Assembly: GCA_027484965.1 (NCBI GenBank)
Contig: JAIXRY010000015.1
Coordinates: 91,807-155,806 of the forward strand
Reading direction: 5' to 3'
Source: a bacterium
GTDB taxonomy: Bacteria; Patescibacteriota; Minisyncoccia; Phycocordibacterales; UBA9973
DNA length: 64,000 bases
A program made the position numbers and the translations under genes. A model generated the notes under the pieces. It did no database searches. It was not told the DNA's origin and was given only the letters and a program-made list of their open reading frames with translations. Positions 14,790 through 64,000 of this stretch are shown one piece after another; position 1 is the stretch's first letter; every line of letters begins with the position of its first letter.

Positions 14790-14825
14790 TGTTCAGATTG
14801 TTTTTAGATGAAAAGTAAAAGAAAT

Positions 14826-16728: not shown

Positions 16729-16735
16729 TATTATT

Positions 16736-18970: not shown

Positions 18971-18988
18971 TAGGTTATAATTATTTAT

Positions 18989-19441: not shown

Positions 19442-19445
19442 TAGT

Positions 19446-20264: not shown

Positions 20265-20356
20265 CACTTATATATATATATTTTGTATAATATGAAGAGT
20301 AGGCGCTGTCGTGTCTATGGACTATTAGTTTTTATTATTATTTATAATTTTTTATT

Positions 20357-21087: not shown

Positions 21088-21175
21088 AAATTCCAAAATC
21101 AGAATATTGAAATTTATATTTTGTCTTCGATTCGAATAATGTAAAAATATTTTTTACTTACTCCTCGCTCGACAA

Positions 21176-21212
21176 AATAAAAAAAGCCCCGCCGTAAGGT
21201 GGGGCTTTTTGT
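21176..21212. terminator. bidirectional terminator
   Basis: aaaaaaagcccc-gccgtaaggt-ggggctttttg between convergent genes. Confidence 0.55.
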
Positions 21213-21231
21213 TGCGAGTGCAACGAAAGAG

Positions 21232-21813
21232 CTAATCTAACAAAAATTTAAAATTAATCGGATTAATCCAAAATTTGAATTTGTTCCATAAAGATAATGG
21301 CTCTTTGGAAATTATTACAAATTGTGAGTCAGATGTTGCTTGTAAGTGATATAAGCCAACTCCATGTTCTCCTGCATTAATTGGAACATTTGGACAGAAT
21401 GTGTATTCTGCATAGTCTGGATAAATAACCTTAACACAATGTACTTGAGGATTAATCACAATCCTTTCGTTGTAAACATCGAAAGTGTAATCTTGTCCTT
21501 TTGTAACTGTAATCGTCTCAGAATAAGGAATATTCATTCTAATAATGAATCCGATAATTAAGATGATTATTCCTGGTCCTTTTATAAATTTCCATAAAGA
21601 AAATTTCTCAGTTTGTGTTTCAGAAGAATTGTTTACAGAATTTGTTGTCCCTGTACCTGATGTTGTGGTGGTTGTGGTAGTGTTTTGATTATCTCCACCT
21701 TGCTGATTTTGGTTTGTTGGTTTTTTGGTTATTTTATTAATCCAAAAAATTATCGCCCAAATTAGTAAAAAAAGAATAATTCCAACACTAAGCATTGTCG
21801 TCATCCTTTCCAT
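21232..21813 (-). CDS. membrane protein, possible NfeD-like partner of the SPFH protein
   Basis: Two TM segments, Thr-rich linker, C-terminal beta-rich domain; overlaps the upstream SPFH-like gene by 26 nt in the same order as qmcA-ybbJ. Confidence 0.3.
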   Translation of the reverse strand: MERMTTMLSVGIILFLLIWAIIFWINKITKKPTNQNQQGGDNQNTTTTTTTSGTGTTNSVNNSSETQTEKFSLWKFIKGPGIIILIIGFIIRMNIPYSETITVTKGQDYTFDVYNERIVINPQVHCVKVIYPDYAEYTFCPNVPINAGEHGVGLYHLQATSDSQFVIISKEPLSLWNKFKFWINPINFKFLLD

Positions 21814-22903: not shown

Positions 22904-22966
22904 TTTTTTGTCAATTTTGTTTTAATATATTATACACCTTTTATATAAAAAAGTCAAGGAGTTCTC

Positions 22967-23060
22967 GGATTTACTTTCTGGAAGCACACGTAAAATCGTG
23001 CTCGATTTTCTGCTCTGCTCGCGCCGTCGCGCTCCGCAAGGCTTCCAGAAAGTAATATCC
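22967..23060. other. structured intergenic element, candidate small ncRNA
   Basis: 19-20 bp closing stem ggatttactttctggaagc / gcttccagaaagtaatatcc enclosing inner hairpin cacg-taaaat-cgtg and a GC-rich core. Confidence 0.25.
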
Positions 23061-23285
23061 TCGCTCGATAGTTAGTACAAAAAACCTTAATAAATAAAGT
23101 TTTAGGGGAGAGGGAGGACTTGAAACTTACAGTTTCAGTACACCTTTTGGATATTTTATTTCACTCTGTTCATAAAAGTATCTCAAAAGCTTTTCAAGTC
23201 CTACTCCTGTTTTTAGAAAAAAAACAGTTGCGTCTCCCAAGCAAAAAGTCCCTAAAAGGGACTTTTTTGTGCTGACAGGACTTTC

Positions 23286-23420
23286 CGACTACGTCGGCAG
23301 GTACTTTTCAATCTCGTAAACTCGATAATGAAAAGTCTTTCAAGTCCTCACGAAAAGTGTGCAGACATTTTTCTTCCCGAGCACAAAATAAAAAGCCTCA
23401 AAAATGAGGCTTTTTATTTT
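23286..23420. repeat. tRNA-associated palindromic repeat unit (copy 1, downstream of tRNA-Leu-TAG)
   Basis: cgac-tac-gtcg hairpin, ggtacttttcaat, ataatgaaaagtctttcaagtcc motif, gcag-loop hairpin, and inverted copy of the tRNA T-arm/acceptor (ttcaagtcctc...ttcccgagcac). Confidence 0.5.
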
Positions 23421-23503
23421 GTGCTCGGGAGAGGACTTGAACCTCCATGGATCACTCCACCTGTTCCTAAGACAGGCGCGGCTACCAATTACGCCACCCG
23501 AGC
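23421..23503 (-). tRNA. tRNA-Leu (anticodon TAG)
   Basis: Minus-strand 83-nt cloverleaf read by eye: acceptor GCTCGGG/CCCGAGC, anticodon loop CTTAGGA, long variable arm, T-loop TTCAAGT. Confidence 0.8.
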
Positions 23504-23643
23504 ATTACAATATCAATAATGATTTTGTATAGAAATAGTACCATAAGATTTATATTTTTCAAAGTGAAAGATAATCATATAATATAGACACTTTTCCACA
23601 AAATTATCTTATTAATTTACTGTGTTTATGAGACAATATAAAT

Positions 23644-26600
23644 ATGTTAAATAATTTTAAATATTTTATAACCAGAAGCTATACACTTTTTGTGGTATCT
23701 ATCTTCATCTTCACATTTTCTATATTAAAAGTATCAGCTGTATACTATCCTACAGACAACATAACTAATCCTACATGTGCACCAGGTGCAGTAGGATGTT
23801 ATGTATCTTTACTTCCTGATCAGGTAGGTAATGCAGGTAAACTTTTAATTACTAACGGTACAAATCCTTCTTGGTCCAATACTATTGGAAATGATCTTAC
23901 TATAAATACTCTGACTGTTGGCTTAGGTGGTGGAAGTGTTTCTACTAACACAGCTGTTGGTGTTGAGACATTGTTTAGTAATACTACTGGAGGTGCTAAT
24001 ACTGCTAATGGTTTTAGATCTTTAAGAGAAAATACTACAGGTGATATGAATAGTGCTCTTGGATATAATTCACTTAGATATAATACAACCGGATCTGAAA
24101 ATGTTGCTTTTGGATATAATTCAATGTTTGCCAATACTTCAGGAGGTAAGAATTCAGCTTTTGGTAAAGAAACACTTTCTAGTAATACTACAGGTACTTA
24201 TAATACTGCAATAGGATATCAATCTCTCTTGTCTAATACATCAGGTGCATACAATGTTGCAATAGGTAATAATGCGCTTGATGCAAATACTACAGGTATA
24301 AGTAATATTGGATTTGGTCATAACGCTCTAGGAGTTAACACTTCCGGCTCATACAATATTGCTTCAGGTTGGAATACTTTATCTGCAAATACTACAGGTA
24401 GTCATAATATTGCTTTTGGTTCAGACACTCTAGGTTTAAATACTACAGGTATTCAAAATATTGCACTGGGACAACAGGCGCTAGTTAATAATTTGTCTGG
24501 TCAATATAATGTTTCAATAGGGACACAGTCACTTTTTAATAATACTACCGGTGGCAACAATCTAGCTTATGGGTACTATGCTGGTTACAATAGTCAGACA
24601 GGTTCAAATAATATTTTTATTGGAGCACAAACTGGTCTTGGTATAACAACAGGTTCAAACAACACAATCATTGGTGCTAATGTTACAGGACTCTCTTCAT
24701 CTCTTTCAAATAATATTATTATTGCAGACGGTGCAGGGAATCAAAGAATTAATATAGATAGTAATGGTAATGCAGAAATAGGTGGAAATATTTATTCTGC
24801 TGGTTTGAAGTGGAGTACAACAGCCCCTGTAGCTGACAGGCAATGGGTTGATGTAGGTTATGGAAATGGACTCTTTGTTGCTGTAGCTCAAGGTTCTGGA
24901 ACAGACAGAATTATGACATCTCCTGATGGTGTAAACTGGACATTGAGAACTCACTCTACTTCATCATTAAAATCAATCACTTATGGTAATGGAATATTCG
25001 TAGCGGCTGGTCATTCTGGTACCCGTTTTTTAACCTCTACAGATGGAATAACTTGGACAGCCCGTACTGGTACAGGACAATCGTTTTATGTAACTTACGG
25101 TAATGGTCTTTTTGTTGCTTCAAAAATAGATAATGCTGGGCTTAGAATTATAACATCTCCAGATGGAATAACTTGGACAGATAGAGTAACTCCTGTAGGA
25201 GCTGATAAACCTTGGGTTGGAATAACTTACGGTAATGGTCTTTTTGTTACTGTGGCTGAGACGAATGGAACACAGTCTATTATGACATCTCCAGATGGTA
25301 TAAACTGGACACTACAGACACACCCATCTGTTTCTTCTGGTGGATTTGAAAACGTTGCTTATGGTGATGGTAAATTTGTAGCTGTCGGTATTGGTGGTTT
25401 AGTTATGACATCTCCAGACGGAGTAAACTGGACACAACAGTCTTTCCCAAATGCAGCCCTTCTTTATCGAATAACTTATGCTGAGGGCATGTTTGTTACA
25501 GCTGGAGCTTTCTCTACAACAAACAACAATATTTATACTTCACCTGATGGTATAACTTGGACAACAAGAGTTGTTCCTAAAAATGATTGGGCTGGAGTTG
25601 CTTATGGTAATGGACGTTTTGTAATGGTTGCCTTTTCTGGAACTCTCGGTAGTCGTGTTGCATACTCTGGTAAAATGTCTACACTAGACACTTTAACAGC
25701 AAATATATTCCACGGTAATCATTTCTTTACTGCTAACATCGGCATCGGCACAACCTCTCCCTTCGGCAAACTCGACGTTGCAGGCTCATCATCAAGTACA
25801 GACTTAGTAGCATTCGACACAAACAGAAGTATCTCTGTAATCAACACAAACACTACAACAAACAACGCACAAGGTATAGCACTCCGTTCATATGGTACAG
25901 ACGGAACAACTATCCAATCAGGTGTAAAACTCCTTGCAGTTAACACAGCAAGAACAGCTACAACAATAACTTCTGATCTTGCAATCCTTACCAACAATGC
26001 TGGTACGATAAGTGAGAAGATGCGTATTCTTGCAAATGGAAAAGTAAATATTGGAACGGGTAATGTTTATAATACTGATTCAAATACTCTTCTGAATGTT
26101 TATGGTAATATGGGGGTTGTTAGAGCTAATAATCCTGCCTCTGTTTTTGTAGGAAGAACTCAATCAGGAGGACTTCCTACAGCTAGTGCTACATTAGGTA
26201 GTCTCGGAGCTGCGCTTTTTGATGGGACAAATTGGGTGGCTGGTGGTAATAGATTTGCTTTCTTTGCTGCAGAAAACTGGACAAATAGTGCGCAAGGCAC
26301 TTGGATGAGATATGCAAGTGTTCCAGTGGGTTCGAATGCATCTGTTAATATTTTAGAAATAACACCTTCAGGACAATTTAATTTTGGTACAAGCACTCTC
26401 TATCCAGCTCTCACAGAAACATCTCGATTGATGGTTAATGGTCTAGGTTCAACATCATCTACATTTACAGCTCAATTTCATAATTCAACAGGAACTTCAA
26501 ATTCTTTAGTTGTTCGTGATGATGGTAGAGTAGGTATAGGAAACAACGCTCCATCACACACCCTCCACGTCGGCTCAGGCTCTGTAGTCGGCATCGTCTC

Positions 26601-27264
26601 CCGCTTCCAAAACAGTACCGGAACCTGTGACATCAACCCAACAACAACATCACTCTCATGTAGTTCAGATATCAACCTCAAGAAGAACATCACAACTCTA
26701 AAAGATAATCAACCTTTCGTACTAAACTCTCAAACTCCAGATACAAATGTCCTTAAGAATCTAAACAAACTAACACCAGTTATCTACAACTGGACTACAG
26801 AACAAGACACAGCTACAAAACAAACAGGATTCATCGCACAAGACGTAGAACAAATCTTCCCATCTCTTGTATCTACAGACCCTACAACAAACCTCAAGTC
26901 TCTTAACTACATAGGTCTCATCCCATATGCTATAGAAGGTATTAAAGAGTTAGATATCAAGGTTAATCAGTTGAGTTCTTTGGATGATACAGTTGAAGGA
27001 ACATTTGCTTCATTGATAAAATCATATTTATCTAATGCTACAAATCGTATAACTCGTATATTTACAGGAGAAGTTTGTTTGACTGATAGTGATGGAAGTT
27101 CTGAATGTTTGAACAAACAAGAACTACACCAGTTGAAGCAATTGCTTAATAATCAAGGAGTATCAAATAATACTAGTAATCCTGTAGTAGAAGAAGAAGT
27201 TGTAATTCCTGATGAGCCTGCAATTACACCTGAAAATCCTGTAATAGAAGAAGTAATTGAATAA
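23644..27264 (+). CDS. giant tail-fibre-like surface protein with C-terminal peptidase S74 intramolecular-chaperone domain
   Basis: 1206 aa. N-terminal signal anchor; about 20 repeats of a 14-15 aa N-x-A-x-G unit, Hep_Hag/tail-fibre-like; eight V-x-YGNGLFVAV...IMTSPDG(V/I)NWT Asp-box-like propeller repeats; C-terminal SSDINLKKNI...TGFIAQDVEQIFPSLV...LNYIGLIPYAIEGIKELDIKVNQL matches the auto-cleaving chaperone domain of phage endosialidase/tail fibres. Confidence 0.6.
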   Translation: MLNNFKYFITRSYTLFVVSIFIFTFSILKVSAVYYPTDNITNPTCAPGAVGCYVSLLPDQVGNAGKLLITNGTNPSWSNTIGNDLTINTLTVGLGGGSVSTNTAVGVETLFSNTTGGANTANGFRSLRENTTGDMNSALGYNSLRYNTTGSENVAFGYNSMFANTSGGKNSAFGKETLSSNTTGTYNTAIGYQSLLSNTSGAYNVAIGNNALDANTTGISNIGFGHNALGVNTSGSYNIASGWNTLSANTTGSHNIAFGSDTLGLNTTGIQNIALGQQALVNNLSGQYNVSIGTQSLFNNTTGGNNLAYGYYAGYNSQTGSNNIFIGAQTGLGITTGSNNTIIGANVTGLSSSLSNNIIIADGAGNQRINIDSNGNAEIGGNIYSAGLKWSTTAPVADRQWVDVGYGNGLFVAVAQGSGTDRIMTSPDGVNWTLRTHSTSSLKSITYGNGIFVAAGHSGTRFLTSTDGITWTARTGTGQSFYVTYGNGLFVASKIDNAGLRIITSPDGITWTDRVTPVGADKPWVGITYGNGLFVTVAETNGTQSIMTSPDGINWTLQTHPSVSSGGFENVAYGDGKFVAVGIGGLVMTSPDGVNWTQQSFPNAALLYRITYAEGMFVTAGAFSTTNNNIYTSPDGITWTTRVVPKNDWAGVAYGNGRFVMVAFSGTLGSRVAYSGKMSTLDTLTANIFHGNHFFTANIGIGTTSPFGKLDVAGSSSSTDLVAFDTNRSISVINTNTTTNNAQGIALRSYGTDGTTIQSGVKLLAVNTARTATTITSDLAILTNNAGTISEKMRILANGKVNIGTGNVYNTDSNTLLNVYGNMGVVRANNPASVFVGRTQSGGLPTASATLGSLGAALFDGTNWVAGGNRFAFFAAENWTNSAQGTWMRYASVPVGSNASVNILEITPSGQFNFGTSTLYPALTETSRLMVNGLGSTSSTFTAQFHNSTGTSNSLVVRDDGRVGIGNNAPSHTLHVGSGSVVGIVSRFQNSTGTCDINPTTTSLSCSSDINLKKNITTLKDNQPFVLNSQTPDTNVLKNLNKLTPVIYNWTTEQDTATKQTGFIAQDVEQIFPSLVSTDPTTNLKSLNYIGLIPYAIEGIKELDIKVNQLSSLDDTVEGTFASLIKSYLSNATNRITRIFTGEVCLTDSDGSSECLNKQELHQLKQLLNNQGVSNNTSNPVVEEEVVIPDEPAITPENPVIEEVIE

Positions 27265-27329
27265 TATAAATTAAGTCTCAGTAGGGATCTTTCGTTACAC
27301 GAACAGTAGACCTTTTGCATTTATTTAAA

Positions 27330-27445
27330 TCATAGATTTTCATAAATAAGCAAAAGCTTTTCGATCCCTACACGCATATGAAGCAGTTCATATGCTTGAG
27401 GGGACAAAAAAACAAAAACACCAATTTGGTGTTTTTGTTTTTTTG
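27330..27445. repeat. tRNA-associated palindromic repeat unit (copy 2, downstream of tRNA-Lys)
   Basis: aaaagcttttcgatccctac + gcatatgaa-gcag-ttcatatgc hairpin + ttgaggggac(a)n ... tgtcccctca long palindrome ending inside the tRNA acceptor. Confidence 0.5.
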
Positions 27446-27518
27446 TCCCCTCAGTAGGGATCGAACCTACGACATTCTCCTTAAGAGGGAGCTACTCTAC
27501 CAGCTGAGTTATGAGGGG
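27446..27518 (-). tRNA. tRNA-Lys (anticodon CTT)
   Basis: Minus strand; acceptor CCCCTCA/TGAGGGG (unusual C1-G72), D-loop AGCTGGTA, anticodon loop CTCTTAA, T-loop TTCGATC. Confidence 0.7.
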
Positions 27519-27628
27519 TCTTATATTATATTTTAAAACTTACTTTTACCCCACAATTCTTTTGTTGAAGCCACTACAGCTGAGTTATGAGGGGATTATA
27601 TTAAAAAAAATATGAAGGGGTCTCGCCT

Positions 27629-27727
27629 TAATGAAAAGTCTTTTGAAGCCCATCAAGGCAATAAGCTGGGCACCTGTGGACGGTCTTGGGCACAAAGTAA
27701 ATAAACCTAGAAGGTTTATTTACTTTG
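27629..27727. repeat. tRNA-associated palindromic repeat unit (copy 3, downstream of tRNA-Leu-TAA)
   Basis: aatgaaaagtcttttgaagccc motif then gcacaaagtaaataaacc-taga-aggtttatttactttgtgc hairpin running into the tRNA 3' end. Confidence 0.5.
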
Positions 27728-27809
27728 TGCCCAGAGTGGGGGTCGAACCCACATCCCTTGCGAGACACGATTTTAAGTCGTGCGCGTATACCAATTCCGC
27801 CATCCGGGC
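27728..27809 (-). tRNA. tRNA-Leu (anticodon TAA)
   Basis: Minus strand; acceptor GCCCGGA/TCTGGGC, anticodon loop CTTAAAA, long variable arm, T-loop TTCGACC. Confidence 0.8.
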
Positions 27810-27871
27810 AAATTATTTATTTTTAAATTATAGCATAAAATTCAGGGACAGGAATTAAATGGCGGGAATCT

Positions 27872-28002
27872 CGACTTACAGTCGCGGGTACTTTTCAATT
27901 TTTTACTTCATAAAAAATAATGAAAAGTCTTTCGATTCCCGCACGCAAGCAAAGCAGTTTGCTTGCTCCACGTCTCAAGAAAACCCCTAATGGGTTTTCT
28001 TG
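27872..28002. repeat. tRNA-associated palindromic repeat unit (copy 4, downstream of tRNA-Cys)
   Basis: cgact-tac-agtcg hairpin, ggtacttttcaat, ataatgaaaagtctttcgattcccgc, gcaagcaaa-gcag-tttgcttgc hairpin, ccacgtctcaagaaaacccc-taat-ggggttttcttgagacgtgg. Confidence 0.5.
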
Positions 28003-28074
28003 AGACGTGGGCGGGAATCGAACCCGCGCATGGCGGTTTTGCAGACCGCAGCGTTACCACTTCGCCACCACGTC
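28003..28074 (-). tRNA. tRNA-Cys (anticodon GCA)
   Basis: Minus strand; acceptor GACGTGG/CCACGTC, discriminator U, anticodon loop CTGCAAA, T-loop TTCGATT. Confidence 0.8.
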
Positions 28075-28107
28075 AATATTATATGTTCAATATATAATAT
28101 ATCTTAT

Positions 28108-28482
28108 TTAATCTTTTGTCACTTCTGTATCTTCTTCTGATGAGTTGTCTAAATGTGAATTGTCGTCGCGGAGTATTTGGTCAATTTTTTGCTTCATATG
28201 CTCTCCGTGATCAATCGAGACATCTAAGAAGGGAATTGTGTGAGTTTGGAGTCTCTTCTTTATTTCTTTTCTTATTTCACCTCTGTGGCGTTTTAGAAAT
28301 CCAAAAGCCGCATCTTCTTTGTCTTGAGGAAGACAGGTGAAATATATAGTCGCATTTTTTCCGTCATCAGATATTTCTGTACGAGTGATTGTAATAAGGG
28401 AAGTATTACCAGAGTTTGCTCCTATATATGAACTCGCTATTTCTTTTACGAGTATAGAGATTTTTTCGTTTCTATGTGCCAT
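28108..28482 (-). CDS. rbfA: ribosome-binding factor A
   Basis: 124 aa immediately downstream of infB, the conserved infB-rbfA order; the N-terminal KEIASSYIG...SLITITRTEISDDGKNATIYF fits RbfA. Confidence 0.6.
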   Translation of the reverse strand: MAHRNEKISILVKEIASSYIGANSGNTSLITITRTEISDDGKNATIYFTCLPQDKEDAAFGFLKRHRGEIRKEIKKRLQTHTIPFLDVSIDHGEHMKQKIDQILRDDNSHLDNSSEEDTEVTKD

Positions 28483-28483
28483 A

Positions 28484-29974
28484 TTATTTTTGTACCATAA
28501 TAAATGATTCTAAGATATCTCCAGACGCTATGTCGAGCTTTGCTTCTACAAATAGTCCACATTCTTCTCCTTCTATAGCGTCTTTTGTTTTTGACTTACT
28601 CTTTTGTACTTCAAGAATTTTTCCACGCCCAATTTCGTTTTCGCGACGGATAATTCTAACAATACTTCCTGATTCTATGCGTCCAGAAATAACTTTTCCT
28701 CCAACAACTTGTTTGTCGCGAGTTTGTGAAAATGTTTTTATTATTTTTAGTTGTCCGATAGATTCTATAGTCTCAACACGAGGTCTCTTTGCTTCGAGGT
28801 TTACTTCAAGCCATTCAGTGAGTTTGTAGATTATGTTGAAGAGTTCTATTGTGAGTCCAAGTTTTTCATTTGTGTCACGAGCAATAGGATCAATTTTTAC
28901 ATTAAATCCAACAATAACAGTGTCTTTGTCACTTGCAGCACGCTTGATATCTCCTTCAGAAATATTACCGACACCACAAGTCATTATTTTGTATGCAATT
29001 TTTTCTTGTGCAAGTTTCTTTACTTCTTTTTCAATAGCTTCAGCTGTTCCTAATACATCTGTTTTAATGATGAGGGGAATATATTTCTTTTCTGTGTCAG
29101 TAACTTCTACTGCAGATGATTCGTCTTGCCAATCAGCGATACTTTCTTCAGCTTCTTTCTTTGTATCAACAGTTGTAAATCTTGTTCCGACTTTTGGAAC
29201 ATTTGACCATCCAGAGACTCTTATGGCGTTTGAAAAACTTGCACTTTGAACAGGCTTACCCAAAAAATCTTCAAGCATCTTTGTACTTGCATATGCATTT
29301 CCAGCAACTATAAATTGACCTTTTTTAACAGTTCCATTTTTAATTATAAGAGTTGCTTGGGCGCCAATTTTAGAATCACTTTTTGATTCTATAATTAGTC
29401 CGTTAGCTGGGATTTCTGGCGTTCCTACAAATTCTTCCAAGTCAGCAACAAGACTGATTGTTTCAAAAAGATCTGGAACCCCTTCTCCTGTTTTTGCAGA
29501 AATGAGTACGAAAGGTGTTGTCCCTCCCATACCTTCTAGATACACTTCGTTTTCAGCAAGATCCATTTTTGTCTTGTCTACGTTTGCTCCTGGTTTGTCT
29601 ATTTTGTTTATTCCAACAATAAAAGGTACTTCATTTTCTTTGATTGTTTTTATTGCTTCAAGAGTTTGCATCTTTACACTATCTTCAGCAGACACTATAA
29701 GGATTGCAATATCGGCAACCTGAGCTCCACGAGAGCGCATACCAGAGAATGCAGCATGTCCTGGTGTGTCAATGAATGTTATTGCGCGTTCTTTTCCGTC
29801 AGAAGTTTTATGCTTTACTTCATAAGCAGATAAGTGTTGAGTTATTCCTCCAGCTTCTCCGTCTACGATGTTTGTTTTGCGAATGTAGTCGAGAAGGGTA
29901 GATTTACCATGGTCAACGTGTCCCATGATTACTACTACCGGCGCTCTTTCTTTTGTGGTTATTTTTATACTCAT
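28484..29974 (-). CDS. infB: translation initiation factor IF-2 (short form)
   Basis: G-domain VVIMGHVDHGKSTLLD, DTPGHAAF, NKID; only 496 aa, lacking the N-terminal extension. Confidence 0.9.
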   Translation of the reverse strand: MSIKITTKERAPVVVIMGHVDHGKSTLLDYIRKTNIVDGEAGGITQHLSAYEVKHKTSDGKERAITFIDTPGHAAFSGMRSRGAQVADIAILIVSAEDSVKMQTLEAIKTIKENEVPFIVGINKIDKPGANVDKTKMDLAENEVYLEGMGGTTPFVLISAKTGEGVPDLFETISLVADLEEFVGTPEIPANGLIIESKSDSKIGAQATLIIKNGTVKKGQFIVAGNAYASTKMLEDFLGKPVQSASFSNAIRVSGWSNVPKVGTRFTTVDTKKEAEESIADWQDESSAVEVTDTEKKYIPLIIKTDVLGTAEAIEKEVKKLAQEKIAYKIMTCGVGNISEGDIKRAASDKDTVIVGFNVKIDPIARDTNEKLGLTIELFNIIYKLTEWLEVNLEAKRPRVETIESIGQLKIIKTFSQTRDKQVVGGKVISGRIESGSIVRIIRRENEIGRGKILEVQKSKSKTKDAIEGEECGLFVEAKLDIASGDILESFIMVQK

Positions 29975-30432
29975 ATTAATTTCTTTTGATTAAGAAGAGC
30001 TGTTTGTTCTTCTTCTGTTAATTCTGTCTCACTTTCCCAAGCTGTAATCTTTTTTGCAAAAACTGTCATTCTGTCTCGTGCATAGAGTGTTGAAATTATT
30101 ACCCCTGTTCCTGTTTCATCAACAAGAGCAATTGCAAAACTCTGTGCGCCAGTAGTATCTCCCCAAGCATTAAAGCGAACAATATCTGTTCTCTTGATTG
30201 CTTGTTTTAATCTTTCTTCTATATCTGCCAAAAGTACATCATGGTTTTGTGTGTTCTTGTAGAGGATGTCTGTACGCTTTATAAGAAGCGAAAGTAATTC
30301 ATCTACACTACCTTCCTCTGTTTCTTTAAAAAGTCTCTGCCATTTTTTCTCAAGCTTCAAATTCCATATGAGTAAAGAGATACTCACAACCCCAAAAACA
30401 ATGAAAAACACACTGGAAATAGGTAATACCAT
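29971..30432 (-). CDS. hypothetical membrane-anchored protein
   Basis: 153 aa, N-terminal TM; sits upstream of infB in the same operon. Confidence 0.4.
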   Translation of the reverse strand: MVLPISSVFFIVFGVVSISLLIWNLKLEKKWQRLFKETEEGSVDELLSLLIKRTDILYKNTQNHDVLLADIEERLKQAIKRTDIVRFNAWGDTTGAQSFAIALVDETGTGVIISTLYARDRMTVFAKKITAWESETELTEEEQTALLNQKKLI

Positions 30433-55029: not shown

Positions 55030-56706
55030 ATGAGTTTATTTAGGAAAAAAAGAAAAAAATATAGGGATGTTGATCCAGATGAAATATTGATTGACGCACA
55101 AAATCTCCCAAACTTTAATAGGCAACAATTTGAAGGGAGACTAGAAAAAGCAATTAAAGAAAAACCTTTTTTTATTTTTGGATTTTTTGTTACTGTCGTA
55201 TTTATTATTTTTTCCGGTAGGCTTTTTTACATTCAAGTTATACAGGGTGACGAATATTTGGCCAAGAGTGAAAGAAATAGTTTAAACACTACTCCTATTT
55301 TTGCTGACCGTGGAATTATATATGATAGAAATAAAGTAGAACTTGCTTGGAATGAAAGACTTATTCCAGAACAACCTTTTGCTGATCGTGTATACATAAA
55401 ACAACCCGGATTCGCTCATTTGCTTGGCTATATAAAATATCCAGAAAAAGATAGTTCTGGTAATTTTTGGAGAGATTCTTTTATTGCAAAAGATGGAATT
55501 GAAAAGATATACAGCAAACTTCTTGAAGGAAAAAATGGTGTAAAAATATTTGAGGAAGATGTTTATGGAAATACATATTCAGAAAACACAATCAATCCAC
55601 CAATTCATGGTACGGACCTTATGCTCTCTATCGACTCTAAAGTGCAAGAGGGTCTTTATAAAGGAATTGAAAATCTTGCCCAAAGTTCTGGATATCGTGG
55701 AGGAGGAGGAATTATTATTGATGTAGATACTGGTGATGTCTTAGCAATGACAAGTTATCCAGAATATGACCCTAATATTTTATCAAAAGGTGAAGATCAA
55801 AATATTATTAAAGGTTATTTAGAAGATTCAAGAAGGGTTTTTATTAATCGTGTCTTGTCTGGTGTTTATACTCCAGGATCTATTGTTAAACCTTTTGTAG
55901 CTATAGGTGCTCTTAATGAACGTATTATAGATCCTCGTACTCAGATTTTGAGCACAGGAAAACTCGTCATTCCAAACATATACGGAGGTCCAGATAGTAT
56001 TTTTAAAGACTGGAAAGCTCATGGATATGTTGATATGAGGGAGTCTATCGCAGTTTCTTCTAATATATATTTTTATGAAATCGGTGGGGGGTATAAAGAC
56101 CAAAAGGGTCTAGGAATTGCAAACATTGAAAAGTATTCAAAAGCTTTTGGTATTGGTAAGAAGAGTGGTATTGATTTACCAAATGAACTTTCTGGTGTTA
56201 TTCCAAATATCGAATGGAAAAAGAAAAACTTTCCAAATGATCCTTGGAGAATTGGAAATACATATCACACAGCTATTGGTCAGTATGGTTTTCAAGTAAC
56301 ACCAATACAAATGGCTCGTGCTACAGCAGCTATTGTAAATGGAGGTAATCTTGTAACCCCTGGTCTTATCTTGAATGCGGCCAGACCAAAAGAACATATT
56401 GATATAATAAAAGACGAAAATGATTACAAAGTTGTGCAAGAGGGAATGCGACAGGTTGTGACAGATGGTACAGGTACTTCAATGAAAGCTTTTTCTGTGG
56501 CTGCTAAGTCAGGAACGGCTCAAGTTGGAGTTTCTAAAGATAGAGTCAATTCTTGGATAATTGGATTTTTCCCTTATGAAAACCCAAAATATGCATTTGC
56601 TATTTTGATGGAGAGTGGAACAGCAAATCAAGTTGCAAGTGCTTCTAATGCGATGAAATATACTCTTGAATGGATGCAGATGAATACTCCTGAGTATTTG
56701 AAATAA
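55030..56706 (+). CDS. mrdA: penicillin-binding protein 2 (class B transpeptidase)
   Basis: N-terminal TM, dimerisation domain, SIVKP / SSN / KSGTA motifs; lies outside the dcw cluster, so PBP2 (mrdA) rather than ftsI. Confidence 0.7.
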   Translation: MSLFRKKRKKYRDVDPDEILIDAQNLPNFNRQQFEGRLEKAIKEKPFFIFGFFVTVVFIIFSGRLFYIQVIQGDEYLAKSERNSLNTTPIFADRGIIYDRNKVELAWNERLIPEQPFADRVYIKQPGFAHLLGYIKYPEKDSSGNFWRDSFIAKDGIEKIYSKLLEGKNGVKIFEEDVYGNTYSENTINPPIHGTDLMLSIDSKVQEGLYKGIENLAQSSGYRGGGGIIIDVDTGDVLAMTSYPEYDPNILSKGEDQNIIKGYLEDSRRVFINRVLSGVYTPGSIVKPFVAIGALNERIIDPRTQILSTGKLVIPNIYGGPDSIFKDWKAHGYVDMRESIAVSSNIYFYEIGGGYKDQKGLGIANIEKYSKAFGIGKKSGIDLPNELSGVIPNIEWKKKNFPNDPWRIGNTYHTAIGQYGFQVTPIQMARATAAIVNGGNLVTPGLILNAARPKEHIDIIKDENDYKVVQEGMRQVVTDGTGTSMKAFSVAAKSGTAQVGVSKDRVNSWIIGFFPYENPKYAFAILMESGTANQVASASNAMKYTLEWMQMNTPEYLK

Positions 56707-57283: not shown

Positions 57284-58771
57284 ATGGCATCACTCGAAGA
57301 ATTACGTTTAGCTCGTTTGCAAAAAAAGTCGCTTCTAGAACAATCTGGAATGTCTCCTTATGCAACACAAGTAGAAAGAACTCATACAACAAATGAAGCT
57401 TTAGAGCAGTTTGATATGCTCTCATCACAAAATTCAATTGTTACTGTGGTTGGAAGAGTTATGGCGCTTCGTGGTCAAGGTGCAATCATGTTTTTCAATG
57501 TTAAAGATGGAAGTGGTATTATCCAATGCTGTATTAAGAAGGATGAAATTTCAGAACTTCTTATGAGTCTTTTTGTAGATACTGTTGATATTGGAGACTT
57601 TGTTCAAGTTTCTGGAACTTTGTTTGAAACAAAAACAGGACAAAAGACAATTCTTATTACTGACTGGATAATGCTTACAAAGACACTCAGGCCACTTCCT
57701 GATAAATGGCACGGTCTTCAAGATGTAGAAGAAACATATCGCAAAAGATATCTTGATGCACTGATGGATGATTCTGTTCATAATCGTTTTATCGTTCGTG
57801 CAAAAGTCATAAAGGCCATTCGTGCATTCTTTGATGATCTTGGTTTCTTAGAAATAGAGACTCCAATACTCCAAACACAAGCAGGAGGTGCAATGGCTCG
57901 CGTTTTTGAAACTTTCCATAACGATTACCAAATCCCAATAGTTCTTCGTATTGCGCTTGAACTTGATCACAAGATTTTGACTGCTGCAGGATATGAACGT
58001 ATTTATGAAATAGGAAAGAACTTTAGAAATGAGGGTTCTGATCCTACACATATTCAAGAATTTACAATGATGGAATGGTACGCAGCTTATGCGTCTCTCG
58101 AAGAAAATCTAGATTGGACAGAAGCGCTTCTTCGTCATCTCGCTCAAGACATTGTTGGTAAAACAACATTTAGCGTTTTTGATAAAGAGGGAAATGAGCA
58201 TACTGTATATTTTGATGGTGCGTGGACTCGTATAAAATTCGCTGATCTTTTGAAAGAGTATGCAGATTTCGATATGAATTCTTCTACACTTGATGATATT
58301 CGTGACAAAGCAATACAACTTGGTCTTGATAAAAATGAATCACTAAAAATAGGAAAGGGAAACTTGCTTGATTATATTTTTAAAAAGACCGCTCGTCCAA
58401 AACTTATTCAACCAACATTTGTTCTTGACTATCCAAGTGACTTGAAACCTCTTGCTCAGCAAAATGAAAATGGTACAGCTCGTGTTGCACAGCTCGTGAT
58501 TGCAGGTGCCGAGATTACAAATCAATATGCCGAACTCGTTGACCCAATACTAGAGAGAAATCTTCTCGAAGAGCAAGCTAGTGCAAAAGAAGGTGGTGAC
58601 GATGAAGCGATGTCTGTCGATGAAAGATTCCTTACAGCAATGGAGCATGGTATGCCTCCAATGACAGGTTTTGGAATGGGGATTGATAGACTGGTAGCAC
58701 TTTTCACTGAACAGCGAAATCTGCGCGATGTTATCTTCTTTCCAATAATGAAACCAAAAAGTGACGAATAA
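57284..58771 (+). CDS. lysS: lysine--tRNA ligase (class II)
   Basis: OB anticodon-binding domain plus class II motifs (FRNEG, GGAMAR, GMGIDR). Confidence 0.9.
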   Translation: MASLEELRLARLQKKSLLEQSGMSPYATQVERTHTTNEALEQFDMLSSQNSIVTVVGRVMALRGQGAIMFFNVKDGSGIIQCCIKKDEISELLMSLFVDTVDIGDFVQVSGTLFETKTGQKTILITDWIMLTKTLRPLPDKWHGLQDVEETYRKRYLDALMDDSVHNRFIVRAKVIKAIRAFFDDLGFLEIETPILQTQAGGAMARVFETFHNDYQIPIVLRIALELDHKILTAAGYERIYEIGKNFRNEGSDPTHIQEFTMMEWYAAYASLEENLDWTEALLRHLAQDIVGKTTFSVFDKEGNEHTVYFDGAWTRIKFADLLKEYADFDMNSSTLDDIRDKAIQLGLDKNESLKIGKGNLLDYIFKKTARPKLIQPTFVLDYPSDLKPLAQQNENGTARVAQLVIAGAEITNQYAELVDPILERNLLEEQASAKEGGDDEAMSVDERFLTAMEHGMPPMTGFGMGIDRLVALFTEQRNLRDVIFFPIMKPKSDE

Positions 58772-58780
58772 AAAAACCTC

Positions 58781-58809
58781 CCAATTGGGAGGTTTTTTGT
58801 AGATAATTT
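58781..58809 (+). terminator. rho-independent terminator
   Basis: aaaaaacctccc-aatt-gggaggttttttg. Confidence 0.65.
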
Positions 58810-58846
58810 ATAAAAAATAAAACCTTATTTGTTAAACAAATAAGGT

Positions 58847-59092
58847 TTAATAATTAAATTCGTACTGAGCTTTGTCATCCACAATTTCTTCGTGTATCTT
58901 GGATATTATCCAAGATTTAATGCCGTGACATTTTTTTATCATTTTTAGGAAAGCTTTCCTTTTTCTAGATAAAAGCATGCGTGCTTTTTTTTGATATGCT
59001 GCGATAAGGTCTTTTACTGAACCATCATCTATTGTAGAGTGTGTTTTTTTAAGCTCATTAAGAATTTCTGTTTCCAAAAATCTTTTTTTCAT
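58847..59092 (-). CDS. small basic hypothetical protein
   Basis: 81 aa; hairpin aaaccttatttg-ttaaa-caaataaggttt downstream. Confidence 0.35.
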   Translation of the reverse strand: MKKRFLETEILNELKKTHSTIDDGSVKDLIAAYQKKARMLLSRKRKAFLKMIKKCHGIKSWIISKIHEEIVDDKAQYEFNY

Positions 59093-59376
59093 GGCGTTAT
59101 TTTTTCTATATTAATCATATATTTTATATATTTTTTGTCAAATGAATATTTGTATTTTACCAAAGAATGAGGTTTCTACTTTTAAAATACATTACGGAGG
59201 CAAAATTTCTTAAATATTTAATTGGTAGTTTTTGTATTTTACTATCAAGCGAGGTTACTCCTCTAGAACGACATTTCGCAGCCGGGCAGGCGAGAATAGT
59301 AATTTCGTAGCAACAAAATATACGCGTCCTTCTAGAGGAGTGGCCGAGCGCCACTTATCCACACAGATTCTTTTGA

Positions 59377-59425
59377 AAGTGGGGTACAAGTGGTGTAAAA
59401 TGGTAACAAGTGGGATGAAGTGGGA
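59377..59425 (+). promoter_or_regulatory. MraZ-box direct repeats upstream of mraZ
   Basis: AAGTGGGG / AAGTGGTG / AATGGTAA / AAGTGGGA / AAGTGGGA starting at 59377, 59388, 59398, 59408 and 59418 (10-11 bp periodicity), 44 bp upstream of the mraZ start. Confidence 0.5.
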
Positions 59426-59468
59426 AATTTGACGGCATCAATTTTCTCCAAATCTTGCGAAGAATTAT

Positions 59469-59903
59469 ATGCTTATTGGCGAATACACACACACCCTTGA
59501 TGAAAAAAAACGCATTTCGCTTCCTATAAAGTTCCGAAAGGAGCTTGGGAATGAAGTGGTTATTACTCCAGGGCTTGATCAATGTTTATTTGTCTTTCCA
59601 ATAAGTGAATGGGAAAAGATTTCTTTAAAGTTATCAGATACATCAATTCTTCAAAAAGACCCACGAAGTTTTAATCGTCATTTCTTTGGGCAAGCCTCTG
59701 TTGTAGATGTGGATACGAATGGTCGTATTCTTCTACCAGAACGTCTAAAAGGAAAAGCAGGTTTAAGTAAAAATGTTGTCTTTATTGGCGTTCAAAGCCG
59801 TGTCGAAATGTGGGATGAAGCAACGTGGATATCTTACCGTGATGAAATAGAAAAAGGTGCTGACGATCTTGCCGAGAAGCTTGGCAGTGTCGGTATCTTA
59901 TAG
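59469..59903 (+). CDS. mraZ: transcriptional regulator MraZ
   Basis: MLIGEYTHTLDEKKRISLPIKFR duplicated-MraZ-domain protein. Confidence 0.85.
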   Translation: MLIGEYTHTLDEKKRISLPIKFRKELGNEVVITPGLDQCLFVFPISEWEKISLKLSDTSILQKDPRSFNRHFFGQASVVDVDTNGRILLPERLKGKAGLSKNVVFIGVQSRVEMWDEATWISYRDEIEKGADDLAEKLGSVGIL

Positions 59904-60804
59904 AAGGAATATGACACATATTCCTGTACTTTTAAAAGAAGCTGTTCTCGGACTTGACCTTAAGTCAGGGAACACTTATCTCGATGGAACACTTGGTTCT
60001 GGGGGTCATGCACGTTTTGTGTGTGAACATTTTGGCCCGTCAATTCGTGTTATTGGTATTGACCGTGACTTAGATGCGATTAATCGTGCAGAGGGAACGT
60101 TCAAATATCTTCCAAACGAACACCATTTTGTTCTTGATGAATTTCGCAACTTAGACAATGTGCTTTCAAATTTACATATTGAAAAAGTTGACGGAATTCT
60201 TTTCGATTTAGGTATAAGTTCTCCTCATGTTGATACATCAGGTAGAGGATTCTCTTTTATGAGAGATGAACCTCTTCTTATGACTATGCAAAAAGATCCA
60301 AAAGAGGATGTAATGACCGCATACGATATTGTAAATACATGGGCGGAAGAGAACTTGGAAACTATACTTCGATATTATGGCGAAGAAAAATATTCACGTC
60401 GTATTGCTCGAAATATAGTCTCAAAAAGAGAAGAAAAACCAATCAAAACAACCTTTGAATTAGTTGCCATCATTAAAGAAGCTGTTCCTGCTCTGTATCG
60501 TTTTGGGAGAATACATCCAGCAACAAGAACTTTCCAAGCAATAAGAATCGCTGTTAATGATGAATTAGAGAATATAAAAGAAGGTTTGAAAAAAGGTTTT
60601 GATTCTCTTGCACCAGGAGGCACATTCGCAGTTATTAGTTTTCATTCTCTTGAAGATAGAATTGTAAAACATTTCTTTCAAGATAAAGTAAAAGAAGAAA
60701 CTGCATTTTTAATACAACGAAAGCCTATCATTCCGACAGATGAAGAAATAGAAAGTAATCCAAGGTCACGAAGTTCGAAGTTGCGCATTATTAGAAAATT
60801 ATAA
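59857..60804 (+). CDS. rsmH: 16S rRNA (cytosine1402-N4)-methyltransferase RsmH
   Basis: HIPVLLKE, DGTLGSGGHA; likely start at internal Met 59911. Confidence 0.85.
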   Translation: MLTILPRSLAVSVSYRRNMTHIPVLLKEAVLGLDLKSGNTYLDGTLGSGGHARFVCEHFGPSIRVIGIDRDLDAINRAEGTFKYLPNEHHFVLDEFRNLDNVLSNLHIEKVDGILFDLGISSPHVDTSGRGFSFMRDEPLLMTMQKDPKEDVMTAYDIVNTWAEENLETILRYYGEEKYSRRIARNIVSKREEKPIKTTFELVAIIKEAVPALYRFGRIHPATRTFQAIRIAVNDELENIKEGLKKGFDSLAPGGTFAVISFHSLEDRIVKHFFQDKVKEETAFLIQRKPIIPTDEEIESNPRSRSSKLRIIRKL

Positions 60805-60816
60805 CCACTATTATTT

Positions 60817-61155
60817 ATGTCACTATCACAAACAAAAGAAAGAGTAATAGATATCTTTAATGGATCTCTTGAACGATTTGTTCGTTCTGCTATGATTCTA
60901 TCTGCTGCTTTATTTTTTGTGTACGTGATTGTAGTCGGGCTAATTACTTTTAGTGTGGTTCACCGAAAAACCGTTCAAGGGCAAACAAAACAACTTCGCT
61001 CTGATATTGCTTCACTTGAGCTTTCATATCTTGCACAAGCAAATACTATTGATATGGCGTATGTACAAACACTTGGTTATACCGAGGTTAAAAATCCTAC
61101 ATATACCAATCGCACAGAAGGTCTAGCATTGCTTAGTACTCATGAATCTCTCTAA
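60817..61155 (+). CDS. ftsL: FtsL-like cell division protein
   Basis: 112 aa, single TM, positioned between rsmH and ftsI as in dcw clusters. Confidence 0.45.
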   Translation: MSLSQTKERVIDIFNGSLERFVRSAMILSAALFFVYVIVVGLITFSVVHRKTVQGQTKQLRSDIASLELSYLAQANTIDMAYVQTLGYTEVKNPTYTNRTEGLALLSTHESL

Positions 61156-62860
61156 AATCAAAAACAACTCCAGAACAAATTTTCTATCCTATGGAATTGT
61201 TCTCATAGGCTTCCTTATTGTAGTGAGGCTTTTTTCTTTGCAGATAATACATAAGTCTGATTATGCTGATAAGGCTGATAGGCAATATACAACCCCTAAA
61301 GGTTCTATTTTTGATAGAGGAACAATATTCTTTACCAAAAAAGATGGAAGTCTCGTATCTGCAGGAACTGTTATGACGGGTTTTAAAGTTGCAATAAATC
61401 CAAAACAAATCGTTGAACCAGAAAAAACTTATGAAGTCATTAATGCTATTACTCCTATAGATAAAAAAGATTTTATAGACAGAACAAAAAAGAAAAATGA
61501 TCCATACGAAGAAATAAAAGTACATCTCACAAAAGAGGTGGCTGATAGAATAGACTCACTAAAAATAACAGGAGTCTCTATTTATCAAGATAAGTGGCGT
61601 TTTTATCCCGGAGGAACGCTCGCATCCCACGTGATAGGTTTTGTTTCTTTTAAGGGAGACGATCTTCTTGGGAGATATGGAATAGAAAGATCCTATAACG
61701 ACACACTTTCTCGTGGCAAAAAAGATCCTTATATAAATTTCTTTGCTGAAGTTTTCTCTAACATTAGAGAAACTCTGTTTAGTCGTGATGATATTGAAGG
61801 TGATATTGTGATGAGTATTGAACCAACAGTCCAAGCGTATGCAGAAAAAAGTTTGCAAAATTTGAATACAAAATGGAGTCCAGATAGTGCTGGTATTATA
61901 ATCCTTAATCCTAATACTGGGTCTATTTATGCGATGGCTGCAACTCCAGATTTTAATCCTAATGAATTTAACAAATTAAAAACAGGATTTTCTTTTTCAA
62001 ATCCTCTTGTAGAAAGTGTTATAGAAATGGGGTCTGTAATCAAACCTTTAGTTATCGCTGCTGGTCTTGATACTGGTGTTGTAACAGCTACTACGACTTA
62101 TTTAGATACTGGTTCTGTGCGTGTTGCAGATAAGGTTATAAATAACTTTGATAAAAAAGGTAGAGGTACGGTAAATATACAAGAAGTTCTTAATCAGTCT
62201 CTTAATACAGGGATGGTGTTTGTTGAACAAAAATTAGGGAAACAAAAGTTTCGTGACTATATGCTCGGATACAAAATAGGTGAGAAAACTGGTATTGATT
62301 TACCGGGAGAGGTTTCTGGTATTGTTTCAAACTTGAAAGCTCCTGGAGATGTCGAATATGCTAATGCTGCTTTTGGACAAGGTATCGCGCTTACACCGGT
62401 AGCAGCAGCTCGCGCTTTCTCTGTTATTGCAAACGGTGGTAATCTCATAACTCCTCATATTGTTGATAGAATAAACTTTAATATGGATAAAGATAAGAAA
62501 GTTGGAGCAGAGCCCACTCCTCTAGGACTTCTAAAGCCAGAAACAACAAAAGAAATAACTCGTATGCTTGTTGATGTTGTAGATAATTATGGAAGTGGTT
62601 CTTATAAACTTGATCGCTATACAATTGCAGGTAAGACAGGAACAGCTCAAGTAGCTGATCTCAATAATGGAGGATATTACAAAGATCAGCATACTCACTC
62701 TTTCTTTGGATATTTCCCAGCATATCAGCCAAAGTTTTTAATTTATTTATACGTAAAAAATCCTAAAGGTGCTCAATTTGCATCACAATCCGTACTTCCT
62801 GTATTTATGGAAAATACAAAATTTCTTTTGAATTACTATGAAGTTCCTCCTGATAGATAA
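61142..62860 (+). CDS. ftsI: peptidoglycan transpeptidase FtsI (PBP3-like)
   Basis: N-terminal TM, PBP dimer domain, SVIKP / SLN / KTGTA motifs; dcw position. Confidence 0.8.
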   Translation: MNLSKIKNNSRTNFLSYGIVLIGFLIVVRLFSLQIIHKSDYADKADRQYTTPKGSIFDRGTIFFTKKDGSLVSAGTVMTGFKVAINPKQIVEPEKTYEVINAITPIDKKDFIDRTKKKNDPYEEIKVHLTKEVADRIDSLKITGVSIYQDKWRFYPGGTLASHVIGFVSFKGDDLLGRYGIERSYNDTLSRGKKDPYINFFAEVFSNIRETLFSRDDIEGDIVMSIEPTVQAYAEKSLQNLNTKWSPDSAGIIILNPNTGSIYAMAATPDFNPNEFNKLKTGFSFSNPLVESVIEMGSVIKPLVIAAGLDTGVVTATTTYLDTGSVRVADKVINNFDKKGRGTVNIQEVLNQSLNTGMVFVEQKLGKQKFRDYMLGYKIGEKTGIDLPGEVSGIVSNLKAPGDVEYANAAFGQGIALTPVAAARAFSVIANGGNLITPHIVDRINFNMDKDKKVGAEPTPLGLLKPETTKEITRMLVDVVDNYGSGSYKLDRYTIAGKTGTAQVADLNNGGYYKDQHTHSFFGYFPAYQPKFLIYLYVKNPKGAQFASQSVLPVFMENTKFLLNYYEVPPDR

Positions 62861-62886
62861 ATATTAATACATAAAACAAAATAAAA

Positions 62887-62926
62887 ATACAAGAGCGGAA
62901 CCCTTCGGGTTCCGCTCTTGTATTTC
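62887..62926 (+). terminator. rho-independent terminator
   Basis: aatacaagagcggaaccc-ttc-gggttccgctcttgtattt. Confidence 0.65.
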
Positions 62927-62967
62927 TCTAACACTTTTCCCCACAAAAACCTATAAAATCTATACTA

Positions 62968-64000
62968 TAATAAACACATGTTAAGTACTCTCAAGTACTT
63001 CTTGAGCCGAGCCTACACGATAGTATCTATCGTGCTTTTTGTACTATCTTACGGAGCTCTCAAAGTATCAGCTATATACTATCCTACAGATAATATAACA
63101 AACCCTACATGTGCACCAGGGGACTCTGGTTGTTATGTATCTTTACTTCCTGACCAAACATCTAATGCAGGGAAGTTTTTGACTACAAACGGCACTACTA
63201 CATCTTGGGCTACGGTGTCTGGTGGTATTTCAAGTTTCAACACTAGAACAGGTGCTATCACTTTAACATCTGGTGATGTAACTGGAGCTCTAGCGTACAC
63301 ACCTTTAAATAAAACTGGAGATACGATGACTGGAGACTTGAATTTGTTAAATATTCAAGCATCTACTTCTTCTGGAATTAATCTAAAAAATATCGGGGGT
63401 ACAACAATTTTTAATGTTGGGTCTGGTAGTGGAGTAAATGCAACAATCACTGCTCCATTAGCTTTAACGGGTGCTTTAACTCAAACAGGAAACGCAGACG
63501 CAGTTCAACTTCGCGTTCGAGGACACAGCACTCAAACTTCAGACTTGACTCAATGGGTGAATTCTTCTGGAACAGTTCTTAATTCAATCAGTGGAGCTGG
63601 TAACGCTGTTTTTGGGCCATCTATCGCACAAGTTCCAAAGGTAGGAATTAGTACAACTAACATCAATCAACCTCTTTTAGTTTTAAAAGCTCCTACTTCT
63701 TTCGCATCATTTTTATTTTTTGCTTTAGATTCTTCTGGGGTTCAAGTTGCTACTATTCATAATTCTGGTGAAAGTATTTTTAAATCTATTACAACAAGGA
63801 GTTCTTTAAACATTGAATCTACAGGAGATGCAACTATTTTTGTCGGTTCTCCAGACGGTGCTACATCTTCGATTGATTTTTTTTCAGATGGTAATGCAAA
63901 TTTTAAGGTTTTAGTAGAACCTTCAACAGATAATTTTATTATAAAGGATGAGGAGACTAATACTCCTTGGTTTAATATTGATAGAGCTAATCGTCGTGTT
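62968..64000 (+). CDS. tail-fibre-like surface protein paralog, partial (runs off window end)
   Basis: ATG at 62968, open to the window end; N-terminus VSAIYYPTDNITNPTCAPGDSGCYVSLLPDQ is near-identical at DNA level to 23720-23840; contains the GDTMTGDL motif common in phage tail-fibre proteins. Confidence 0.5.

Follow-up and report, generated by a model that had tools for sequence, protein, structure and literature searches.

A second tail-fibre-like gene with a conserved N-terminal module, a probable member of a small family of exported fibres in Paceibacterota

Gene B is located at the 3' end of the window, the stretch of 64,000 nucleotides that was analysed as a whole. It is a partial coding sequence on the plus strand (62978-64000) for a secreted tail-fibre-like protein, as assigned by translation and homolog searches; its 341 codons are free of stops and run past the window end. 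Neighbouring genes are lysS, mraZ, rsmH, ftsL and ftsI. The stop codon of ftsI (61142-62860) is at 62860, upstream of gene B, and is followed by a strong hairpin terminator (62884-62926, no strand assigned) with a 20-bp stem, nine GC pairs and T-runs, a structure for which 0 occurrences are expected in shuffled sequences. This hairpin sets gene B apart from the mraZ-rsmH-ftsL-ftsI unit. The original prediction of an open reading frame that follows the ftsI terminator and leaves the window is upheld, but not its start at 62968, which is no start codon; the ATG is at 62978. The peptides quoted at that time for gene B and for the gene at 23644 were found correct when the sequence was re-read, and the motif GDTMTGDL occurs in gene B as stated (residues 114-121, 63317-63340).

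The 3' end of gene B lies outside the window, and no continuation was found in Logan contigs, GTDB genomes or JGI metagenomes. The four SRA-derived contigs with ftsL-ftsI that are shown (L001, L024, L025 and L026) end inside ftsI or at the terminator, L001 at window position ~62918, and none of them reaches gene B; assemblies may break near the terminator because of the hairpin or because gene B varies between strains. Within the region coding for the signal peptide of gene B, at 63016-63034 on the plus strand, lies another hairpin (CACGATAGTATCTATCGTG CTTTTTGT) that resembles a terminator and has a T-run; it is probably due to chance, or could serve transcription attenuation. A further gene of the PBP_dimer/Transpeptidase type is located at 55030-56706, 6 kb upstream of ftsI, and the two class B PBP genes of this small genome share a 56-nt stretch of 77% identity (repeat D9).

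Gene A, the full-length paralog, is an open reading frame of 1206 aa on the plus strand (23644-27264) and is 100% identical to the database protein P0138, which is encoded on an NCBI contig of 156,834 bp. Its layout consists of an N-terminal module (N-module), beta-helix-type repeats, six Asp-box-like repeats, a Peptidase_S74 domain, and a Cys pair with a Pro/Glu-rich tail. The Peptidase_S74 domain (residues 1008-1076, 26665-26871) matches PF13884 with E = 7.6e-14 and carries SDINLK. The six repeats are ~40 aa long, occupy residues ~400-670 (24830-25650) and contain an Asp-box-like S-P-D-G-x-x-W-T each; in Pfam this region is matched by DUF6242 only, and weakly. Together with the S74 end, the Asp-box repeats suggest an endosialidase-like layout. 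PHROG matches of gene A are to virion structural and tail spike proteins.

Four tRNA genes, rbfA and infB are the neighbours of gene A. All four tRNA genes are on the minus strand, with that for Leu upstream (23421-23503) and those for Lys, Leu and Cys downstream (27445-27518, 27727-27809 and 28002-28074); such a tRNA-bracketed position is typical of insertion or rearrangement sites. At a distance of 2.5-7 kb upstream of gene A, five consecutive plus-strand ORFs (16736-21087), one of them of 744 aa, end in a C-terminal membrane segment of the T4SS_pilin (PF18895) type. Two pairs of these ORFs share DNA repeat D10, and the encoded proteins may form a surface filament.

The N-module of gene B comprises residues 1-80 (62978-63217, plus strand) and is the counterpart of residues 1-80 of gene A (23644-23883, plus strand) in the alignments. 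By its sequence the module is composite, consisting of a predicted signal peptide, a motif with two cysteines and one copy of a widespread motif of ~25 aa. The predicted Sec signal peptide of gene B (residues 1-32, 62978-63073, plus strand) begins with MLSTLKYFLSR, continues into a hydrophobic core and ends with KVSA, with a predicted cut before I33. Inspection of 17 family members revealed a basic n-region, a hydrophobic core of 17 residues and the cut-site pattern (V/A/S)-x-A, the last Ala of which, at position -1, is invariant; to judge from this pattern, the leader is probably cleaved behind it.

The predicted mature N-terminus of gene B is formed by the family-specific two-cysteine motif (residues 33-56, 63074-63145, plus strand; IYYPTDNITNPTCAPGDSGCYVSL). 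In the 17 members its consensus is (V/I)YYPTDNITNP(T/S)CAPGxxGCYVS, with both Cys invariant and P-x-C-A-P-G invariant or nearly so. Sequence searches of PDB, Pfam and NCBIfam gave no match to this motif or to the N-module. A weak three-finger-toxin match to TCAPGxxxCY (E = 0.94) was treated as chance.

The third part, with the consensus LPDQxxNxGKxLxTNGxxxSW, is present in one copy each in genes A and B at residues 54-80 (63137-63217 in gene B, plus strand; LPDQTSNAGKFLTTNGTTTSWATV). In an exhaustive HMM profile search of 1.84 billion representatives, the profile positions 54-80 matched 2356 proteins, often with 4-19 tandem copies, as in P0001 and P0019. By this distribution the ~25-aa unit is a generic fibre repeat that is not confined to N-termini, and only ~25-45 mature residues of the N-module are specific to the gene A/B family. 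Proteins with tandem LPxQxGNxGKxLTTxGxxxSW repeats (P0001, P0019 and P0123; precomputed assignment PF27179 / DUF6824-like) carry the unit that corresponds to residues 54-80, and genes A and B, with one copy of the motif each, resemble them in this respect. The tandem-repeat proteins differ in having 3-19 units and neither signal peptide nor two-Cys motif, whereas the single unit of A and B is fixed behind the Cys motif. P0255 is a family member without the ~25-aa unit. When the N-module profile was used for a homolog search of a word-indexed database, the matches were confined to short repeat proteins, and known members were not recovered.

P0014-P0032 represent a conserved family of 226-aa proteins with three tandem copies of GNxGK-L-T-T-x-G-x-x-x-SW each; one source calls them 'azurin', a label that is probably wrong. 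An AF2 model of mature residues 33-141, calculated as a monomer (pLDDT 70.7, pTM 0.34), contains a beta-hairpin at FLTTNGTTTSWATV with pLDDT ~90 as its sole confident element and is otherwise uninformative.

Over residues 1-80, genes A and B share 63% amino acid identity. BLASTP aligns the two proteins with E = 5e-34 over residues 1-122 of gene B only, and no similarity was found by BLASTP beyond residue 122. This confirms gene B as the second fibre gene, paralogous to that at 23644, with a common N-terminal module and an unrelated distal part. The DNA blocks, which align at an offset of 39334, are indeed shared but had been overrated as 'nearly identical': 23727-23840 and 63061-63174 agree in 94 of 114 nt (82.5%), and the extended repeat (23728-23874 and 63062-63208) has 80% nucleotide identity, with a longest exact run of 23 nt. 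It is the sole long repeat that joins separate loci in the 64-kb window.

Conservation between the two genes is distributed unevenly. The signal-peptide codons (residues 1-32) show 45-52% nucleotide identity with saturated dS, whereas mature residues 33-78 show 78% nucleotide identity with a dS of 0.85, a dN of 0.14 and a dN/dS of ~0.16. The mature N-terminus of A and B is under purifying selection. With a dS of 0.85 the two genes are old paralogs, and a recent duplication or gene conversion as the source of their similarity was rejected on the same value. A likeness limited to the signal peptide, named beforehand as an outcome that would speak against a shared module, was likewise rejected, as the signal peptide is the weakest part (52% nucleotide identity) and the mature N-terminus (residues 33-78) the strongest (78%). 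On the whole, the observation is real with small corrections, and its modular interpretation is largely right.

Behind the N-module, gene B contains a second widespread fibre segment (residues 84-121, 63227-63340, plus strand; SSFNTRTGAITLTSGDVTGALAYTPLNKTGDTMTGDL). Its stretch FNTRTGAITLTSGDVTGALAYTPLNKTGDTMTGDL has more than 100 matches among database proteins, many of which possess Peptidase_S74, and residues 84-121 are matched by one annotated phage tail fibre, StenR_269. The distal part (residues 126-341, 63353-64000, plus strand) is made up of ~40-aa units such as QLRVRGHSTQTSDLTQWVNSSGTVLNSISGAGN and is unrelated to gene A. It shares 35% identity with repeats of a collagen-containing fibre ORF of 1233 aa on the viral contig L027, where this ORF adjoins a gene that is predicted, from its translation alone, to be capsid-like; P0076, P0083-85 and P0092 are matched as well. 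The matches to StenR_269 and to the L027 repeats agree with the phage-tail-fibre-like character assigned earlier to the distal sequence. The L027 fibre (3648-7349) has a long G-x-y tract of the collagen type, behind which (R/K)GAxSQTxDLxQWQxSxGxxLAxV units are repeated many times; no other viral relative of gene B's distal part was found. Sequence searches of PHROGs, NCBIfam and PDB gave no match to gene B, and no enzyme signature from Pfam, PHROGs or NCBIfam was detected in its distal part.

Upstream of gene B, a conserved motif is located at 62932-62946 (plus strand; CACTTTTCCCCACAA), which is shared with gene A (23589-23603, plus strand; CACTTTTCCACAAAA) and with the fibre genes of contigs L002, L019 and L010. 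In the form TTTTCC(A/C)CA(A/C)AA it has only two matches in the window, those of A and B, at an expectation of 0.25. The motif TTTTCCCCA(A/C)AA was found in five of eight fibre loci, ~30-45 nt further upstream of a TATAAT-like box, and may be a shared promoter or operator element. The TATAAT -10-like box of gene B (62966-62971, plus strand) is situated 6 nt before the ATG, without a Shine-Dalgarno sequence, and a consensus scan of the plus strand detected no matching -35 element. In A, B, L002, L019, L020, L023 and L010 alike, a TATAAT-like box precedes the ATG by 6-8 nt and a Shine-Dalgarno sequence is lacking (box regions 62966-62980 and 23630-23646 in the window, 12580-12601 in L002). Because the box is so close to the ATG and no Shine-Dalgarno sequence is present, the fibre mRNAs look leaderless, which hints at a shared promoter type of the fibre genes.

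At least 15 cluster representatives among the best 150 matches carry the whole N-module, always N-terminally at residues 1-80; P0138 is one of them. The contigs with the N-module belong to Paceibacterota or are unassigned, and are never viral; a search of 2.9 million IMG/VR viral contigs did not detect the module. All 14 full-length members (14/14), and gene A too, possess a C-terminal Peptidase_S74 with SDxxxK. The C-terminal block of the family consists of SDxxxK, Peptidase_S74, a conserved IKELDIKVNQLSSLD helix, a Cys pair and a Pro/Glu-rich tail. This conservation of the S74 chaperone and the tail is new relative to the original prediction, and to judge from its relatives gene B probably ends in S74 itself. 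The centres of the family members are mutually unrelated; among them are repeats of the YadA-head-like or beta-helix type, GxxGIGT repeats and, in gene A, Asp-box-like ones. No Pfam match to a YadA anchor, head or stalk was obtained for gene A or its relatives at E < 0.1; they end in S74 and the Pro/Glu-rich tail and thereby differ from trimeric autotransporter adhesins, the C-terminal membrane anchor of which is a YadA-type beta-barrel.

The nearest genome found in a scan of GTDB genomes is the Candidatus Paceibacterota MAG DALYDY01, the FtsI of which is 83% identical. Two paralogs each are present in the 64-kb window and in DALYDY01. In the MAG, a 996-aa member is located downstream of ftsI with a Nudix gene in between, and a second member (P0004 plus the next ORF), apparently frameshifted, is located beside a ribosomal-protein operon. 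On contig L020 (2316-5079), P0004 comprises 332 aa and has an odd end rich in Cys and Trp; 22 nt behind it comes a 580-aa ORF with S74, and a frameshift or an assembly error has probably divided a single fibre gene into these two.

Several pairs of family members are mosaics. The L002 protein and P0142 agree at residues 1-90 (100%), 510-600 (100%) and 720 to the end (93-100%), but diverge at residues 100-500 (10-30%) and in a second replaced segment. Gene B and P0137 are 99% identical over residues 1-60, and the remainder is unrelated. A block of ~200 nt, reaching from -35 to +165 relative to the ATG, is 96-100% identical between L020 (2280-2480) and L023 (328-528), whereas flanks and gene bodies are ~40% identical. 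This block contains the -10 box together with the codons of the signal peptide and of the Cys motif, and the neighbourhoods of the two genes differ (rpsS operon versus adk-map); it looks like a recently exchanged cassette. The two paralogs of DALYDY01 share 92% nucleotide identity in the mature N-module against 64% in the signal peptide, which suggests gene conversion. From these four comparisons it follows that central cassettes and the 5' block are exchanged by recombination. The swapping of distal parts that the original prediction read from A and B is thus also seen, for distal or central parts, between otherwise identical genes (L002 protein/P0142, gene B/P0137, L020/L023).

The context of A and B is cellular and non-viral, to which the terminator and the promoter-like elements testify along with the housekeeping neighbours and the absence of the N-module from IMG/VR. 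Apart from the fibre genes, no phage structural genes were found in the ORF translations of 22000-30000 and 58000-64000 or in a Pfam scan of ten ORFs at 8916-22903. For the examined regions a prophage context was rejected on the basis of the housekeeping neighbours, the lack of virion genes and the absence of the N-module from IMG/VR. Judged by neighbours, signal peptide and IMG/VR absence, A and B are not part of a phage or prophage structural module.

Full-text literature searches yielded no description of the gene A/B family. The closest known system is the mosaic adhesive trimer (MAT) fibres of Bdellovibrio bacteriovorus, for which surface display and glycan binding have been demonstrated (Caulton et al. 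2024, PMC10769870). MAT proteins possess a signal peptide, a conserved N-domain and mosaic tips, and 13 of 21 members carry a C-terminal S74 with SDxxxK; their N-terminus was proposed to bind an unidentified element of the predator surface, and for Bd3182 the autoproteolysis of the chaperone was examined by expression with SDS-PAGE or by an S-to-A mutant (PMC10769870). The MAT-like proteins listed for other taxa do not include a member from CPR/Paceibacterota (PMC10769870). Like MAT, the gene A/B family is cellular, has a signal peptide (recognized by inspection) followed by a conserved N-terminus, an S74 end and, in each genome, more than one paralog with exchanged, mosaic distal parts, and occurs in organisms whose lifestyle depends on contact with other cells. 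The two differ in the conserved domain, which is ~130 aa long and beta-rich in MAT but comprises ~45 mature residues with the two-Cys motif in the gene A/B family, where conservation stops ~45 residues behind the predicted cleavage site, and in the number of paralogs, of which only two were seen in the 64 kb of the window. The family is likened to MAT by architecture, and membership is not established.

Phage fibres of the K1F endosialidase and T5 pb1 type (PF13884) have in common with the full-length members of the gene A/B family the C-terminal S74 with SDxxxK, and with the family as a whole a modular layout of a conserved N-terminal part and exchangeable parts, which in the family would likewise serve attachment and receptor binding. 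The motifs FNTRTGAVTLTSxDV and GDTMTGxL occur in both groups, and endosialidases share with gene A the combination of an Asp-box propeller and S74. Unlike these phage fibres, the gene A/B family has a Sec signal peptide, a housekeeping context and an N-module that is not found on viral contigs. For CPR genomes, a preprint of 2026 refers in passing to a tail fibre-like gene that adjoins the pam pilus operon and is uncharacterised (bioRxiv 10.64898/2026.03.03.709456). It can be set beside A and B as likewise tail-fibre-like, from CPR and in the context of a surface filament; no pam operon was found in the Pfam-scanned part of the window, where the T4SS_pilin-type cluster lies upstream of gene A instead. 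Phylum and N-terminal module are new here, and the kind of protein is known, namely phage-derived or MAT-like cellular fibres.

We consider it probable, with moderate confidence, that the gene A/B family consists of cellular, exported trimeric fibres that are displayed on the surface and work like the MAT adhesins of Bdellovibrio and, jointly with this mechanism, that gene B is the second representative of a small family of proteins in Paceibacterota (CPR) that are exported via Sec and resemble tail fibres or tailspikes. The signal peptide would carry the chain across the membrane via Sec and would probably be cleaved after (V/A/S)-x-A. In full-length members the C-terminal Peptidase_S74 would act as an intramolecular chaperone that drives trimer folding and then cleaves itself off at the SDxxxK serine. 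The ~45 mature N-terminal residues, with the two-Cys motif and the GNxGK-L-T-x-G-x-x-x-SW hairpin, would hold the fibre on a conserved cell-surface partner; as the sole conserved part left on the mature fibre they are the best candidate for surface retention, and the N-module may in this sense be the anchor that the original prediction called it. The variable central and distal part would project outward and bind its target, most likely a glycan or protein of the host-cell surface, and the conserved 5' and 3' ends would serve as homology handles for the replacement of central cassettes by recombination. Cleavage, trimerisation, surface retention via the N-module and host binding are thus proposed by analogy. 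Against this reading stand the truncation of gene B at the window end, the length of 45 residues, which is short for a docking domain, the generic repeat that makes up part of the module and occurs within many fibres, and the small size of the family with one frameshifted-looking member (P0004).

Retention on the surface could also be achieved if the hydrophobic segment stayed uncleaved and was itself the anchor, as a signal-anchor transmembrane helix, with the two-Cys motif and the hairpin as a juxtamembrane stalk or export element. At 17 residues the hydrophobic core exceeds that of typical cleaved signal peptides, which would suit such a helix, as would the short conserved mature stretch and the fact that no partner protein of the N-module was found. 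The invariant Ala at -1 and the small residue at -3, which are retained in divergent members, point instead to a signal peptidase I site, and conservation is lowest in the hydrophobic segment (52% nucleotide identity, saturated dS) and highest in the residues directly behind it; we therefore regard an uncleaved anchor as unlikely.

Still less probable is a role away from the cell, in which the proteins would be released and attack polysaccharide of the host or the environment, as enzymes (such as glycan depolymerases comparable to endosialidase tailspikes) or as other factors; the N-terminus would then be conserved only for export, processing or folding. The six S-P-D-G-x-x-W-T repeats and the S74 of gene A, with their endosialidase-like layout, are in line with this role, but strong purifying selection on ~45 mature residues (dN/dS ~0.16) in front of unrelated bodies is hard to explain via export alone, and the distal part of gene B has no enzyme signature. 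That A and B are domesticated or decaying phage tail-fibre genes (prophage, tailocin or GTA-like) with an N-terminus attached to the baseplate of a particle is very improbable in spite of the S74 chaperone, the PHROG matches to tail fibres and tail spikes and the tail-fibre motifs, as a Sec-type signal peptide is unexpected on virion fibres assembled in the cytoplasm, the genes occur singly amid housekeeping genes with no phage structural genes in the examined parts of the window, and a search of 2.9 million viral contigs did not find the N-module.

Starting from the preferred reading of exported, surface-held fibres, a more specific proposal can be made tentatively. The genes might supply episymbionts among the Paceibacterota with a set of fibres for recognizing their hosts and thus be the CPR equivalent of MAT in Bdellovibrio. 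The two-Cys N-module would dock on a conserved surface structure, possibly a filament of the T4SS_pilin-type proteins encoded 2.5 kb upstream of gene A, and the ~200-nt 5' block and the 3' S74/tail region would be the recombination handles for cassette swaps and, with them, changes of host range.

For the way in which CPR/Patescibacteria find and attach to their hosts, the literature examined points to type IV pili and, more recently and as a preprint, to the Pam pilus. By analogy, members of the gene A/B family are good candidates for host-cell recognition by these tiny uncultured CPR bacteria. If the proposed mechanism is true, exported fibres that are constant at the cell-proximal end and recombine their distal cassettes would provide concrete candidate genes for host specificity, and the turnover of cassettes between strains could be used to follow these genes in metagenomes. 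The principle known from Bdellovibrio, that cells borrow the receptor-binding architecture of phages for the recognition of other cells, would then reach a very different phylum and envelope type.
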